Shown piece after piece: positions 215 to 51,448 of a stretch of DNA of 64,000 nucleotides. The stretch is from a virus (Duplodnaviria > Caudoviricetes). How positions within the stretch are numbered: position 1 is the first letter of the stretch; each line of letters opens with the position of its first letter. The notes under the pieces are model-generated. The model was not told where the DNA came from, searched no databases, and worked only from the letters and a program-made list of their open reading frames with translations. The DNA lies in IMG/VR virus record IMGVR_UViG_3300028048_001915, positions 23,268-87,267 of that record; one strand, written 5' to 3'. Both the position numbers and the translations under genes were made by a program.

Positions 215-1507
215 TCATGTTGTTGTCTCCTCAGTTGTTTCTTCATCTTCACTTTCTTCCTCGTCTTCATCACTTTTTGCTTCTTCCGGTTCACCAAATC
301 CTGGAGGATAATCAGCTAATGTGATATTAGTTTCCCATCCTGGAGAAGCAGATTCACTATGAGAACATTTTGTAATATACATATAACCATCTTCGTCAAA
401 GCTTGGAATGTATACTCTAACCCATTTTCCTTGTTCCCATAACGGAGAACCAATAACTTTACATTCTATTGTGTGGCCGTTGTCTCTTTTGATTTTAGCC
501 CATTCTGTATTAGCGAATGTCTGTGCTTCTTCTAATGTTTCACAGGGAACTTCTTCAACACTGGACTCTGTGTCACTACTTGAATCATCAGAGGATGTAG
601 TATCTGTTGTGGTGTTTGTGGTGTTATCTGTAGTAGTAGTTGTAGTTGTGGATGAAGTATTCGAGCTTGATGAATCCGACTCTTTTGTTGTAACAACCCT
701 TTTAACCGCATCCATTTCAGCTTTTTTCTCACCAAACCTTTCAATTAATTTTTCATCACGAAAGACAATGTCTTCACCACCTTGCCAATGCACAGTCAAG
801 AAGTTAATTGTTTCAGGATTAATATCAGTAATGTTAATGCTTTTTTGGATAATATCTCTACCTTCAATTAAAGATAATTCAGCAGTTTCAGGGTCAGGAA
901 TCTTATTAATAAAAACAGTATCGTTAACTACACGACATTCAATTTCTCCATCACGCATTTTAAGAATATCTTTAATTGCTTCTTTGATTGTTGATGCAGA
1001 TGAACCATCATCACTATCCTCTCCACCACCAGCCAATATTTTCTTTGCCAGTTCCTCTGGTGTTTGACCATAAACATAATTCACATACTGTTTATTTTCC
1101 TGGAAAAAATAATCTGCAGATTTCCCTAGGTATGGTGCGATAGATGATCCACTACTGAAATTATCATCATGTGCTCTTACTAAAGGTTTATTTTTTAAAT
1201 CTTCTTTGGTAATCCATGAATGAGCTGTCCATGATGCAAAAGCAAACCATGCATATTTCCAATGATAATATCCATTTTTGATACCATCACGAAAATCAAC
1301 GTAAGTACCGATATCACTTCCACCAACAATGAAAATTGCTACTTTTCCTGATGATGAACTTTTTAAACCAGAAGATTGAACAAAATTTGGACCTACACTT
1401 AATCTTTGAGCGGTGTGTCCTTTGCTTTCAAGAACTTTACATACTCTTTCAATTAAGTTGGATTCCCCACCTACAATGTTATCGCATCCAACAATATAAT
1501 CAGTCAT
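215..1507 (-). CDS. Baseplate hub-like tail protein (C-terminal hub half) with an uncharacterised N-terminal alpha/beta domain
   Basis: Lies downstream of the tape measure gene. The C-terminal part (IECRVVNDTVFINKI...ECKVIGSPLWEQGKWVRVYIP...MYITKCSHS...WETNITL) resembles YqbQ/late-control-D hub proteins. Contains a Thr/Ser-rich linker. Confidence 0.5.
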   Translation of the reverse strand: MTDYIVGCDNIVGGESNLIERVCKVLESKGHTAQRLSVGPNFVQSSGLKSSSSGKVAIFIVGGSDIGTYVDFRDGIKNGYYHWKYAWFAFASWTAHSWITKEDLKNKPLVRAHDDNFSSGSSIAPYLGKSADYFFQENKQYVNYVYGQTPEELAKKILAGGGEDSDDGSSASTIKEAIKDILKMRDGEIECRVVNDTVFINKIPDPETAELSLIEGRDIIQKSINITDINPETINFLTVHWQGGEDIVFRDEKLIERFGEKKAEMDAVKRVVTTKESDSSSSNTSSTTTTTTTDNTTNTTTDTTSSDDSSSDTESSVEEVPCETLEEAQTFANTEWAKIKRDNGHTIECKVIGSPLWEQGKWVRVYIPSFDEDGYMYITKCSHSESASPGWETNITLADYPPGFGEPEEAKSDEDEEESEDEETTEETTT

Positions 1508-14420: not shown

Positions 14421-14485
14421 AGTGGGTTTCAGGGTTTGAACCTGTATTTTTTTTAAAAAATGAAGATTAATTTTTTTTAACCCAC
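14421..14485 (-). ncRNA. tRNA-like element 1 (acceptor stem plus T-arm, no D or anticodon arm)
   Basis: Minus strand reads GTGGGTT ...A/U-rich 35 nt... ACAGG TTCAAAC CCTGA AACCCAC T: a perfect 7-bp acceptor stem and a canonical T-loop. Confidence 0.6.
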
Positions 14486-14566: not shown

Positions 14567-14829
14567 AAAATTTTGTTTTAAAACACATACATAGAGAGAT
14601 ATTTTAAAAAATGAAAAAATCGCACAAAAAAAAATTATTCATTTTTTTTATAGTGTTTCTTCTTTTATTTTTTTTTTTATTTTAGCAAAAAAATATGGTA
14701 AACAATGAACAGGGTTTTTTTTTAGAGATAATAAAAGAACCTGTCTTTTGTTTTTGGTTTTAGTTAATGTTTTTTTTTTGGCATTAATAAAGGAAGTGAA
14801 AAAAATGCATTAACCTATTTTTAAACGGT

Positions 14830-14872
14830 AGGTGGGATTTAGGAATCGAACCTAAACAAAGATGTTCCCACC
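14830..14872 (-). ncRNA. tRNA-like element 2 (43-nt minihelix)
   Basis: Minus strand reads GGTGGGA ACATCTTTG TTTAGG TTCGATT CCTAAA TCCCACC T: perfect 7-bp and 6-bp stems with a canonical TTCGA T-loop. Confidence 0.7.
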
Positions 14873-17213: not shown

Positions 17214-18539
17214 TTATATATTATATTCTTTACCTAATCTTTCCATTAACAAAGCCTTTTTCAAAGCTTTAGCCTCAGTATCAGTATGAGGATTAATCAA
17301 AGTCGCATCCTCAACATTATCAATTGTAGGTGCTAAAGCAAACTGACTATAATTCATTGGCACATTACCCCAATCAACAGGGTCTAATCCATAATTGGAT
17401 CTAACTTCATTAATATAAGTTGAACCATTTCTTAATTGCTTATCTTCAATCTCGGCACGGTTTAATTTATTCTCAGTATCCTCACGATTAAATTGGAATA
17501 CTTCACTGAAACCACTACGGCCAAGACTTTTATTAAACTGGTCTTCAATTACACGGGCCGTACCATTCAATACTTTTTGGAAGTCCTTGTTCTGTGATTC
17601 ACCAGTACCCGAACCTAAAGAAGCGGTTTCGATAATATCTACTTTTGCTGGTGGAACACCAAAGTTAACCAGGATAACATCACGACTATATTTCATCAAG
17701 TCCAGGAATTCCATGTCCCTGTTACTGTTAGATGTTCGTAGGTAGTTAGCTGCTTGTAAGATTAAAGTACCTTTCTTATTTTTGTCTTCTTTTAATCTTT
17801 TACGGTTAGCTTCAACAGCTACTTGTCCTAAGTCTTTATCAAAAGTAATGATACCTCTTGGGTCTAAACCACTATTTTGAAAGATATTTTTATTATGGTC
17901 CTTACCTAAAATCTCTAAGGTAATATCTGCAGATATTGAATCTATTAGACTGGTTCCCCATTTACTACCTTTTAATTCGATTTTAGGTTCGTAAATATGA
18001 ATTAATTGGTCGGGTTCATATCTTATCTGGGTATTTCTTATACCCCATTGATTAGTGTCAGGATCCCATCCAATTAATTCTGTTGGAATGAATTTTAACC
18101 CATTAGGTACGCGGTCAAATACTCTATCATGATTAACTTCAATGAATGCATCGCCTGTGCATTTCCATGAAGGTAGTATTTGTTTGACTAAACTACTGAA
18201 TGTAGCTTCATCATATAAACCTGATGGATGGTTGAATAAATTATTTAAATAGTTAACACGAGCAAAATCAACATAATCTGTTTGTGGATTGTTAATACTG
18301 AACCCATTGTTTAATAATTCATCACAGTAAACTCCACAGCATCTACGAACCCACGCATTGTAGTGGAATGCGTCATAGTACGTTTGTAGTAGGTTTATGC
18401 TTTTATCTTGATTAGGGAATGCCCATTTATATTCACGAATATATGATTCAAGTAAACTATTCATTTCTGGTTTTCTTAATAATGGTAGTTTATTTGATAA
18501 TGAGTTAACTATTGATTTAGCTGTGTTAATTATTCCCAT
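17214..18539 (-). CDS. Portal protein
   Basis: 441 aa after the terminase; TGDAFIE, GTSLID, FGVPPAKV and INEVRSNYGLDP motifs. Confidence 0.9.
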   Translation of the reverse strand: MGIINTAKSIVNSLSNKLPLLRKPEMNSLLESYIREYKWAFPNQDKSINLLQTYYDAFHYNAWVRRCCGVYCDELLNNGFSINNPQTDYVDFARVNYLNNLFNHPSGLYDEATFSSLVKQILPSWKCTGDAFIEVNHDRVFDRVPNGLKFIPTELIGWDPDTNQWGIRNTQIRYEPDQLIHIYEPKIELKGSKWGTSLIDSISADITLEILGKDHNKNIFQNSGLDPRGIITFDKDLGQVAVEANRKRLKEDKNKKGTLILQAANYLRTSNSNRDMEFLDLMKYSRDVILVNFGVPPAKVDIIETASLGSGTGESQNKDFQKVLNGTARVIEDQFNKSLGRSGFSEVFQFNREDTENKLNRAEIEDKQLRNGSTYINEVRSNYGLDPVDWGNVPMNYSQFALAPTIDNVEDATLINPHTDTEAKALKKALLMERLGKEYNI

Positions 18540-18591: not shown

Positions 18592-20007
18592 TTATAAATC
18601 TACAATATCAAATACAATATCTCCAATAAAGTTATCATTAAGATAGTTAAATATGTGTGAAGTAGCATCCACAATGTCGTCATTTTGACCATTAGGGAAT
18701 GCTTTGAATTCATTAATGAATATTTGTCTTAATTTATCGTCAGCTATATCAACATAGACTTCACCATCAAATATTTTATTTTTCAATGGTGTAGCACGGT
18801 CAGCTTTACTATTGTTAGGAACAGCTTTACCTCGTTCTACAAAGTAACCTATTAATTGCTCTTCCCATTCATCGAATAATATTTGGCCTGCAGCAGCCAC
18901 TCCTGTTTCAATAACATTAATATTATCATGACCATCAAAATGGACTTGATCTTTAACAGTATTTTTTGTATTTTTACCGAATTGACCATATAAGTAATCA
19001 GTGATTAATACACTTTTATTATCATCTAAAACATACATTGGTACACCGGCGGTGTAATCGTTTTTACCAGGGTCGCTTGAAGCTATATCGTAACCCCGAC
19101 CCATTTGTATAGTTTCCATATCTGGACGATACCAATGTATTTTACTTAAGTCAAAGAAGTCTGATGTATCATCGATTGGTTTCTGTTGGTAGATAGATTG
19201 GAATACTCTTTCACCAACGGATTCTCTTTTCTTTTCTAATACTTCTATACTGTATCTTTCCGGCCATAATGGAGTTCCATCATCTTTAATAGCAGCGAAT
19301 TCTATGAAGTAGTAATCATCTGCACGATCTCTTTTGAATACTCCCTGCAGGTCTCCACTTGACCAGCGAGTATGGAGTAAAACAAGCTTCGTTTGGGGTT
19401 CGATACGTTGTTCTATGATTGTATCAAACCAATCTACCTTTTTCTGCAATAATGTTGGGGTTATATCTTTAAAACCAGAATATATATCATCGAGAATTAT
19501 GTAATCTGCATCTTGACCTGTGATTGAGCCGTCCGCTCCAACAAGTCTTATGCTTCCCTGATATAATGTACCTTCACGGTCACAGAACATTAAATGGTCT
19601 TTTGCATGTTTAATGTCTGATAAGTAAACATTGAAGTATTCACCATAACGGGCAACAGCTTCTTTTAATTGTATACCAAACTTTTCAGATAAAGTAGCTG
19701 AATTATTCACAATTAAAATATTCAAATCAGGGTCTTGGAATATTAACCATAATGGAAAAGCTAATGTAACCATACTTGACTTTGAGTGTCTTGGTGGCAT
19801 TGCAACACATAAACGCTCAATATCACCTAGATAAACCATTGTCAATAATTCACTTAATTCATTAATATGATCTGCTTCAACAATATCTTTATATCGTGAA
19901 GCAATAAATGTCATGTAAAACTCATACAAATCATCTAATATTTCCTCCCAATCATCCACCGTCAGATTTTGATTTGGATTTAGATTTTCTAAGCTTTCGT
20001 TTGGCAT
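18592..20007 (-). CDS. Terminase large subunit
   Basis: Walker A PPRHSKS, Walker B YIILDD, nuclease motifs GYDIA and DDIVDA. Confidence 0.92.
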   Translation of the reverse strand: MPNESLENLNPNQNLTVDDWEEILDDLYEFYMTFIASRYKDIVEADHINELSELLTMVYLGDIERLCVAMPPRHSKSSMVTLAFPLWLIFQDPDLNILIVNNSATLSEKFGIQLKEAVARYGEYFNVYLSDIKHAKDHLMFCDREGTLYQGSIRLVGADGSITGQDADYIILDDIYSGFKDITPTLLQKKVDWFDTIIEQRIEPQTKLVLLHTRWSSGDLQGVFKRDRADDYYFIEFAAIKDDGTPLWPERYSIEVLEKKRESVGERVFQSIYQQKPIDDTSDFFDLSKIHWYRPDMETIQMGRGYDIASSDPGKNDYTAGVPMYVLDDNKSVLITDYLYGQFGKNTKNTVKDQVHFDGHDNINVIETGVAAAGQILFDEWEEQLIGYFVERGKAVPNNSKADRATPLKNKIFDGEVYVDIADDKLRQIFINEFKAFPNGQNDDIVDATSHIFNYLNDNFIGDIVFDIVDL

Positions 20008-20694: not shown

Positions 20695-21135
20695 TTAATG
20701 CACTAATTGGAAATATATATTCACAGCAATAGTTATTACAGTGAATATTGCACCTAAAATTAGCATTTGATTATTAAAACGTCTTTGGTCATCTTTCTCT
20801 TTATCTTTAATGCTATCTTTCAAGTTTTGATAATCTGTTTCAATTGTTTTTAATCGGAGTTCTAATTCAACATCTCCTTTATTTGAATCTACTTTGAAAT
20901 CATTGAAACCTTGAACTAAGATATCTAATTTTTTATCCATTTCATTCATCTTAGTATTCAATTCATCAATCCTCTTTTCCTTATAATCTGCACGAGCTTC
21001 TAACTCAGCAGTTTTTCGACTAATGCCTTGAATTTGTTCTTCATGTATACAGTTATGTTCAGTATGCATCTTCTTCACCCACTGCATCACTGGTATTAAT
21101 ACTATCATATCCTGCAGCAGGATCAACTGTTTCAT
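20695..21135 (-). CDS. Coiled-coil protein with a C-terminal transmembrane helix (lysis/membrane associated)
   Basis: Heptad-rich body and a C-terminal LILGAIFTVITIAVNIYF segment. Confidence 0.5.
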   Translation of the reverse strand: MKQLILLQDMIVLIPVMQWVKKMHTEHNCIHEEQIQGISRKTAELEARADYKEKRIDELNTKMNEMDKKLDILVQGFNDFKVDSNKGDVELELRLKTIETDYQNLKDSIKDKEKDDQRRFNNQMLILGAIFTVITIAVNIYFQLVH

Positions 21136-21367
21136 TTAACTTCGCTTCATAATTTTCAATTGCCATTTGTTCAGCCACATCAACACGTGTGTTTTCTGTT
21201 GATTGAACTATAATGTAACCTGCAATCCATACTATGAATGGTGCTAAGTATGCGAATTGTTCGGGGAGTATTTGTGCTAATGCATCTTTCCCTAAATATG
21301 ATATTGCTCCTGCGATGAATACTATTGCATTCGCTGCTTTACTTTTATATTTATATGTTTGTGTCAT
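21059..21367 (-). CDS. Holin-like small membrane protein
   Basis: Two N-terminal hydrophobic helices and an acidic tail. Confidence 0.45.
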   Translation of the reverse strand: MTQTYKYKSKAANAIVFIAGAISYLGKDALAQILPEQFAYLAPFIVWIAGYIIVQSTENTRVDVAEQMAIENYEAKLNETVDPAAGYDSINTSDAVGEEDAY

Positions 21368-21402
21368 TGGATGATGGTCTCCTTTAAATTTTATATTTTG
21401 AT

Positions 21403-21580
21403 TGGTGATGTCAGGGTTTGCACCTGATTATATTTGAAAAAAGAGAGAGAAAAAAAATTTTAATCTAAAATTTATAAGTCTACAGGAAAATTAATTTTTT
21501 GAATGAAATCTAAAAAAAGATATTGTTACCCATTATTTTTTTAACACCTTTCACCAACCCTCTTTTTTTTATACATCACC
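21403..21580 (-). ncRNA. tRNA-like element 3 (acceptor stem plus T-arm enclosing a ~150-nt insert)
   Basis: 5' GGTGATG (21580-21574) pairs with 3' CATCACC (21410-21404) plus discriminator A. T-arm is TCAGG TGCAAAC CCTGA. Inner AAAAAAGAGGG can pair with CTCTCTTTTTT. Confidence 0.65.
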
Positions 21581-21590
21581 ATATCCATTT

Positions 21591-21803
21591 TTATATGATT
21601 AGGATTTTATATGGATAATCCGCTTTTCTTAATCCAACATATTCTATTGATGCACGGGTTACTAATCCGCATTCTGTACAATAATCTAGGCAGTGTTCTT
21701 CATTATGGATTACTCTGCCTTTGCATTCTGGACATTTGTCGAAGTTGAGCTCTGCTCTTATTATCTTCGCTCTTTTAAGCGGTTTTGATGTTATGGGTTT
21801 CAA
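21591..21803 (-). CDS. TFIIB-type zinc-ribbon protein
   Basis: CPECKGRVIHNEEHCLDYCTECGLV matches the TFB zinc-ribbon pattern. Confidence 0.7.
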   Translation of the reverse strand: MKPITSKPLKRAKIIRAELNFDKCPECKGRVIHNEEHCLDYCTECGLVTRASIEYVGLRKADYPYKILII

Positions 21804-51359: not shown

Positions 51360-51448
51360 AGGTATGTATCTAAGATTTTGGCCAAAGGAGACAGACTTAG
51401 AATCTGTTGCATATAGTTGCTACGTGGGTTCAAATCCCACCATACCTA
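51360..51448 (+). tRNA. tRNA-Leu (anticodon TAG), no encoded CCA
   Basis: Acceptor AGGTATG/CATACCT, anticodon arm ACAGA-CTTAGAA-TCTGT, long variable arm, T-arm GTGGG-TTCAAAT-CCCAC, discriminator A. Confidence 0.92.

Follow-up and report, generated by a model that had tools for sequence, protein, structure and literature searches.

A tRNA-like element whose acceptor-like stem and T-arm close around a long, variable insert was found on the minus strand at 21403-21580 of the window, the 64,000-nt stretch of DNA analysed here, which comes from an 87-kb IMG/VR virus record. Comparison with related loci indicates that selection acts on the acceptor/T-arm helix, its strand and its position. By analogy with known t-elements, we judge the chances to be even that the element is a t-element-like signal, unusual in carrying a large insert, that host RNase P and tRNase Z cut. 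Relatives of the virus came exclusively from Methanobrevibacter MAGs or from rumen and gut viromes, and the phage collection gave no DNA or protein match naming relatives.

Structure and genomic position of the element

The element consists of a 7-bp end-to-end stem (P1), a discriminator A and a T-arm of 5 bp with a 7-nt loop, arranged around 146 A/U-rich nucleotides (Table 1). An initial annotation of this DNA had described a perfect 7-bp acceptor stem with discriminator A and a perfect 5-bp T-stem with a 7-nt loop, and both were confirmed on the minus strand (GGTGATG with CATCACC and A at 21403; TCAGG with CCTGA around TGCAAAC). The P1 pair equivalent to 3-70 is U-A, not G.U, and no CCA is encoded after the discriminator A, where ATC is found instead. 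With 60-nt flanks the pair probability was 1.00 for P1 and 0.77 for the T-stem. The interior contains a TTGGTG motif at 21557-21552. The further interior helix that had been proposed (AAAAAAGAGGG with CTCTCTTTTTT) exists and comprises 11 bp including one G.U, but it is one among many possible A-run/T-run pairings and is common only to the near-identical element of L087.

Table 1. Positions in the window of the parts of the tRNA-like element and of the genes around it.
Feature	Position	Strand	Remarks
P1 5' strand, acceptor-like, GGTGATG	21574-21580	-	Kept in L006, L028 and L087
Optional helix 2, 5' strand, AAAAAAGAGGG	21558-21568	-	In the MFE structure
Interior, 146 nt, 79% A+U	21428-21573	-	Replaces D and anticodon arms; oligo-T runs of 7, 8 and 6
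Optional helix 2, 3' strand, CTCTCTTTTTT	21437-21447	-	In the MFE structure
T-stem 5' strand, TCAGG	21423-21427	-	Pairs with CCTGA
T-loop, 7 nt, TGCAAAC	21416-21422	-	U54, C56, A58 and closing G53-C61 kept; G instead of U at 55
T-stem 3' strand, CCTGA	21411-21415	-	Pairs with TCAGG
P1 3' strand, CATCACC	21404-21410	-	Stacked directly on the T-stem, giving a 7+5 bp helix
Discriminator A	21403	-	A in 18 of the 23 elements of the family
Zinc-ribbon ORF, 70 aa, upstream of the gap	21591-21803	-	TFIIB-type; PF08271 E 9e-4, below cut-off
Membrane-type ORF, 102 aa, downstream of the gap	21059-21367	-	Two hydrophobic segments; first gene of the block leading to terminase and portal
Coiled-coil/TM ORF, 146 aa, then 208-aa ORF		-	Follow the 102-aa ORF in the gene row
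Large terminase	18592-20007	-	In the gene row
Portal	17214-18539	-	In the gene row

The element lies inside a 223-nt gap (21368-21590) within a row of minus-strand genes, beginning 10 nt past the stop codon of the 70-aa ORF and ending 35 nt ahead of the ATG of the 102-aa ORF. All three are on the same strand, and we infer that the element is co-transcribed with both flanking genes. The 70-aa zinc-ribbon ORF is kept upstream of the element or of the gap in nearly all of the ~50 related loci, which makes its product a candidate transcription factor of the virus for the early/late border. The genes that follow the 102-aa ORF include a possible small terminase ahead of the large terminase and portal. 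The element had been placed before a holin-like gene; its location ahead of the 102-aa ORF and the late genes stands, but the holin label has no Pfam or PHROG match behind it. Between the GGAG Shine-Dalgarno sequence and the ATG of the 102-aa gene lies CCATCATCC (21370-21378, minus strand), which is complementary to GGTGATG with one G.U; this complement is also present in L006 and L087 and absent from L028. A bona fide tRNA-Leu gene (Rfam 50 bits) is located at 51360-51448 of the window (+), on the opposite strand of the record.

Taken by itself, the single sequence is not beyond chance. Its minimum free energy was -35.2 kcal/mol (z -1.95), with 9 of 200 shuffles folding equally well. A T-loop-constrained acceptor/T-arm scan gave 7 matches in the 87-kb genome compared to ~4 in shuffles, a looser acceptor/T-arm pattern gave a number of matches equal to the shuffle background, and ARAGORN and Rfam reported nothing at 21403-21580. 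The evidence that is far beyond chance is carried by the relatives.

Conservation and covariation in related loci

The 102-aa protein was used as the anchor for the search for relatives, its ~90 homologues leading to ~90 loci that were fetched. Of 51 distinct loci, 20 had an acceptor/T-arm element on the sense strand within 500 nt ahead of the homologous gene, compared to 0.01 per locus in shuffles, each such element having a T-arm, a 7-nt strand next to it and, 51-223 nt upstream, a 5' strand able to pair with that 7-nt strand. Five further loci had the T-arm with a 5' partner that matched at 6/7 positions or was undetected. The layout occupies the same site in roughly half of the ~50 related loci: it follows the zinc-ribbon gene, and 23-95 nt separate it from the start codon of the 102-aa homologue. 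It is absent from the other half or so, including some loci with 75%-identical downstream proteins (L090-L094), and because of this absence the element must be regarded as dispensable. In element-less relatives (L008, L015, L022 and others) the gap, 150 nt upstream of the 102-aa homologue, often holds a hairpin rich in G+C instead (in L022, TTGTAGAAGGGGA...TCCCCTTCTACAA), which may be a functional substitute for the tRNA-like element.

The 23 elements of the family gave 20 distinct end-sets, and covariation over all groups was computed from a manual parse because the 5' strands came out misaligned when all groups were put through MAFFT together. Across the 12 stem positions of the 20 distinct versions 96.7% of pairs were canonical, compared to 63 ± 3% (maximum 75%) with the 3' halves swapped, and two to five pair types were seen at every position. 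In a 13-sequence alignment 92.6% of cells were paired with double changes at 9 of the 12 pairs, and none of 500 shuffles matched the observed paired percentage or the covariation score. The T-stem changes from A-U to C-G in L006 and L028 (TCCGG/CCGGA) and is wholly different in sequence yet still paired in L030 and 15 other versions. Within P1, pair 2 changes from G-C to C-G in L030 (GCTGATG/CATCAGC) and pair 5 from A-U to G-C in L058 (GGTGGT/ACCACC). Conservation of the end pairing had been set beforehand as a refuting test, and the pairing was found to be kept in relatives with compensatory changes; their occurrence across many lineages indicates that the pairing is under selection.

Seven G.U and one A.C were found among the cells of the 20 versions that are not Watson-Crick pairs, and this 7:1 excess argues that it is the gene-sense RNA that folds. 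T-arm motif hairpins with a G-C closing pair were counted 31 times in sense and never in antisense in 275 kb of loci. The T-loops of the family are TTCAAAT, TTCGAAT, TTCGATT, TGCAAAT and TGCAAAC, with a TGCAAAY loop in 7 of the 20 distinct versions and mostly TTCRAAT-type loops in the remainder. The element starts 2-10 nt past the upstream stop codon in the window, L006, L028 and L016, and its 3' end is separated from the downstream start codon by 23-95 nt across the family. In L063 just 23 nt remain before the start codon, which leaves no space for a separate promoter there.

Some loci showed signs of extra copies. L074 has a canonical T-arm and 3' strand at 1433-1457 (+) (GGCGG TTCGATT CCGCC CCACAAC A) with no detectable 5' partner, and L070 has a weak second model match (27 bits) at 325-433 (+); both are possible tandem second copies. 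The same provirus segment with the element occurs twice, as L028 and L029, on one 130-kb MAG contig at a distance of 77 kb, which could reflect two related proviruses or an assembly duplication.

Variability of the interior

Interior length ranges from 51 to 223 nt across the family and the interiors are largely unalignable. Those of group A (146, 223, 213 and 71 nt) have little in common beyond a TGGTG motif, and the window's own interior is unconserved in relatives save the near-identical L087. The closest relatives (L002/L003) are 97% identical to the window from the T-arm downstream and 72% identical upstream of the 5' strand. A relative with such 72%/97% flanks has an unrelated interior that is 77 nt longer (223 compared to 146 nt). 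The mosaic junction is sharp and falls at 21427/21428, exactly at the T-arm, so that the two stem halves belong to different exchange modules.

Sense-strand T runs were present inside the elements of L006, L028 and L030 (2-6 runs each) and absent inside 13 of 18 other elements, those members being rich in A runs. Interior similarities among the 23 elements were co-oriented, except for one trivial 12-nt antisense match. The larger subgroup of relatives has two recurring interior motifs, TGGTG and an AT-rich palindrome containing TTCRAWT. A BHB intron and a short tag ORF had been suggested as features to look for in the interior, and neither came to light: ARAGORN was negative with introns of 0-300 nt, a custom hBHBh' scan returned only A-run/T-run matches with at most one G-C pair in the central helix, and no sense-strand ORF of at least 20 aa was found.

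Comparison with known RNA classes

The element has the 7-bp acceptor stem and discriminator of a tRNA, covarying in relatives, and its T-arm keeps the stem, U54, C56, A58 and G53-C61 of the tRNA consensus, position 55 being G, not U. No D arm or anticodon arm was detected by ARAGORN, intron mode included, and the Rfam tRNA model (RF00005) had no match at E ≤ 10. Two low-threshold ARAGORN tRNA calls in relatives were spurious, their stems being unpaired, and the element of L030 scored 26.9 bits with the Rfam tRNA model, just below the cut-off of 29. A canonical tRNA or tmRNA was rejected: nothing at the site was called by ARAGORN (default, intron and tmRNA modes) or by Rfam, whether at the gathering threshold or at E ≤ 10. 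An intron-bearing or split tRNA was also rejected, as the ARAGORN search with introns was negative and there is no tRNA body for splicing to restore.

The initial annotation had likened the architecture to tmRNA or Y RNA. What holds of that comparison is a conserved tRNA-like domain that closes around a long insert and lies on the same strand as the late operon; kinship beyond this layout is not supported. As in the tRNA-like domain of tmRNA (RF00023), the two paired ends form an acceptor stem beside a T-arm and close a large interior. RNase P processes precursors of the tmRNA type. Unlike the window element, tmRNA has G3.U70, a CCA, a resume codon and tag ORF, pseudoknots, a conserved interior and SmpB. 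The window element has U3-A70 with ATC after the discriminator, it lacks a tag ORF or conserved mRNA-like region, neither the ARAGORN tmRNA mode nor the Rfam tmRNA models matched at the site, and the virus has no SmpB (PF01668). Trans-translation is not known from archaea. Y RNA and bacterial YrlA, partnered by Ro60, likewise are non-coding RNAs containing a tRNA-like module. YrlA, though, has a Ro-binding stem made by its ends and carries its tRNA mimic internally, the reverse of the topology found here, and no Ro60/TROVE protein (PF05731) was found in the virus. MALAT1/mascRNA and the MHV68 TMERs have a tRNA-like fold that draws in RNase P and/or RNase Z and so defines the ends of neighbouring RNAs, which is like the role proposed below. 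These are eukaryotic and herpesviral systems with compact cloverleaf-like folds and another enzyme context, and no homology is implied.

Other candidates were rejected as well. An 11-codon ATG frame that follows GGTGATG is not kept in L006, where ATG TAA is found. For a C/D-box reading (GUGAUGU ... CUGA), the C-box-like bases are those of the P1 strand and the motifs are missing in the larger subgroup. An attP site or host tRNA fragment found no counterpart, since the tRNAs of the host MAGs lack this T-arm and acceptor within 3 mismatches. TATA-like motifs in or upstream of the element lie at positions that are inconsistent between loci, in an AT-rich background that makes them uninformative, and gave no usable promoter placement.

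A candidate processing signal for host tRNA enzymes

RNase P, tRNase Z and the CCA-adding enzyme all recognise a tRNA by its acceptor/T-arm helix. Both enzymes of tRNA end processing are represented in the hosts: all three Methanobrevibacter MAGs examined, each with a provirus, have an archaeal RNase P RNA (RF00373), and two of the three have RNase Z (TIGR02651) above cut-off. A t-element upstream of the 5S rRNA of Haloferax volcanii is cut by RNase P and tRNase Z and has been reused to release RNAs (PMC4326828), and in plant mitochondria t-elements mark the ends of mRNAs (PMC1920247).

Two further acceptor/T-arm mimics occur in the same operon as the window element, on the same strand and with the same 7+5 bp top-half design. 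The one at 14421-14485 (-) has a 33-nt connector and scores 23 bits with the Rfam tRNA model, below cut-off; its T-arm (ACAGG TTCAAAC CCTGA) is nearly identical to that of the window element (TCAGG TGCAAAC CCTGA). The other, at 14827-14872 (-), has a connector of 9 nt. Unlike these two mimics, the window element has 146 nt with T runs between its halves, lies at the boundary between regulatory and late genes and has a syntenic family of its own.

We favour a t-element-like punctuation reading because the constrained helix is the target of RNase P and tRNase Z, the enzymes are present in the host, t-elements have an archaeal precedent and two further mimics are found in the operon. Like t-elements, the window element has an acceptor-like stem stacked on a T-arm with the T-loop consensus, has no decoding part and lies on the sense strand at a gene border, the family being sense-only. 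It departs from their compact tRNA-like size: t-elements are compact degenerate cloverleaves, whereas here, in an element of 178 nt, the halves are split by 146 nt (51-223 nt in relatives). It also differs from described t-elements in the G at position 55 of its T-loop and in occupying a conserved syntenic site in a methanogen virus. On these likenesses the element is most likely t-element-like in function and has the topology of the tmRNA tRNA-like domain.

Under this proposal, RNase P would cut at the 5' end, 10 nt past the upstream stop codon, and tRNase Z would cut right after the discriminator A, 35 nt ahead of the downstream start codon. The cuts would part the zinc-ribbon message from the late-operon message, which would gain a short defined leader, and a 178-nt RNA would be freed that is a by-product or, possibly, a small RNA. 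Both transcription across the element and its cleavage are things that we infer, the latter by analogy. We further assume, from the processing of tmRNA precursors and minihelix substrates, that archaeal RNase P and tRNase Z would tolerate an insert of 146 nt.

Oligo-T is an archaeal terminator. Many transcripts may stop at the interior T runs before the 3' half is made, which is in tension with the t-element reading.

Attenuation and a competing hairpin

The same T runs bring up a regulatory leader or attenuator at the early-late boundary, in which they would stop most zinc-ribbon transcripts and read-through transcripts alone would complete the tRNA-like fold, altering the stability, processing or translation of the late mRNA. 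We consider this rather unlikely as the function of the element. The window element does have T runs of 6-8, with 2-6 such runs in L006, L028 and L030, and it lies right at the junction of a regulator-like gene and the late block, but 13 of the 18 other elements have no interior T runs, and because most relatives avoid them attenuation is not the general function of the family. In the window, CCATCATCC between the Shine-Dalgarno sequence and the ATG could pair with GGTGATG as well, and the absence of this complement from L028 tells against such a role. Attenuation could in any case go together with RNase P and tRNase Z cleavage and is not an alternative to it.

A structural observation in the larger subgroup bears on the same question. 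In this subgroup (L013, L016, L021, L023, L024, L032, L039, L063, L073, L075, L077 and L081) the 5' strand of P1 has a further pairing partner, an adjacent strand on the other side of a G(A/C)(G/A)AA loop, as in GCTATG-GAGAA-CATAGC. Over 13 relatives this proximal hairpin was 98.6% paired with 3 of 6 pairs doubly changed. It is mutually exclusive with P1, and for about two thirds of the 13 relatives the thermodynamic model prefers it to P1. A second helix overlaps the proximal strand in this subgroup. An attenuator in the larger subgroup would use the covarying hairpin, often favoured over P1 in the energy model, as its switch by competing for the 5' strand; the window's group has no proximal competitor hairpin, which weakens the attenuator for the window element itself. 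The two covarying partners of one 5' strand point to a switch, or else to an intermediate of folding.

A covariance model of the larger subgroup found one copy each in 5 of 103 Methanobrevibacter genomes, a lower bound that covers the larger subgroup only, as the model misses the window's own element. Four of the five copies lie between zinc-ribbon and 102-aa homologues and the fifth (L102) is elsewhere. The L102 copy (1501-1614, +) lies within ~560 nt of non-coding DNA, is followed by T runs and is near a 158-aa ORF. Together with the competitor hairpin, this copy hints at more than a passive cutting mark. One such possibility, to which we assign a low probability, is a tRNA-mimic RNA switch gating the early-to-late transition of methanogen viruses, or an excised RNA that is a functional tRNA-like small RNA. 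In the switch only read-through transcripts would adopt the tRNA-like fold, and in most relatives the competitor hairpin would have to be displaced as well; expression of the late operon would then be licensed once RNase P, tRNase Z or another tRNA-binding factor recognises the fold.

Other explanations

A stand-alone small RNA gene acting in trans, its tRNA-like ends serving maturation or stability with possible CCA addition in the manner of a tmRNA, a Y RNA or a viral tRNA decoy, appears quite improbable. The interior of the window's group is unconserved despite flanks that are 72-97% identical, its T runs would truncate the RNA, it holds no sense ORF of at least 20 aa, the element shows no G3.U70 and no tmRNA match, and the virus is without a SmpB or TROVE gene. 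Set against this are a layout like that of the tmRNA tRNA-like domain closing a large interior, the different gene context of L102 with its non-coding DNA and T run, and the interior motifs (TGGTG and the TTCRAWT palindrome) that recur in the larger subgroup.

The tRNA-like acceptor and T-arm sequences, the score of 26.9 bits for L030 against the Rfam tRNA cut-off of 29 and the absence of the element from about half of the relatives would also suit a decaying viral tRNA gene remnant or an attP-type copy of a host tRNA 3' end that is now functionless. We hold this to be very unlikely: compensatory changes across many lineages indicate pairing under selection, the 5' strand is kept across unrelated interiors, no host MAG tRNA has this T-arm and acceptor within 3 mismatches and the element is not at a provirus end.

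Least credible of all is a DNA-level site, either inverted repeats around an invertible promoter segment or a cos, pac or recombination site at a module boundary: a 9-bp perfect inverted repeat (TGGTGATGT/ACATCACCA) does flank an AT-rich segment just upstream of the terminase block, and it is within the element that homology breaks between the 72% block and the 97% block, but such a site leaves unexplained the T-loop consensus, the 7 G.U to 1 A.C and the 31 sense to 0 antisense T-loop motifs, the interiors of the 23 elements share their similarities in the same orientation apart from the one trivial 12-nt match, and four independent assemblies of the window's type have one orientation in common. 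An invertible segment, att or cos site was rejected, with no opposite orientation, no identity to a host tRNA 3' end and no location at the end of a genome.

Implications for methanogen viruses

Methanobrevibacter is the main methane producer of the rumen and gut, and the element defines a conserved syntenic RNA family in its viruses. The family shows selection on the "top half" of a tRNA only, with inserts of 51-223 nt tolerated. Almost nothing is known of how the long late transcripts of archaeal viruses are shaped and timed, and our search of the literature found no description of tRNA-like processing signals in these viruses. If the proposed cleavage is true, archaeal viruses would join the systems that use tRNA punctuation and t-element processing, the family would be a natural test of the amount of foreign RNA that archaeal RNase P and tRNase Z accept in their substrates, and its members would offer portable processing modules for methanogen genetics. 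The competitor hairpin of the relatives makes them a directly testable candidate for an archaeal RNA switch and, were the switch reading true, it would be the first archaeal riboregulator based on a bistable tRNA mimic.
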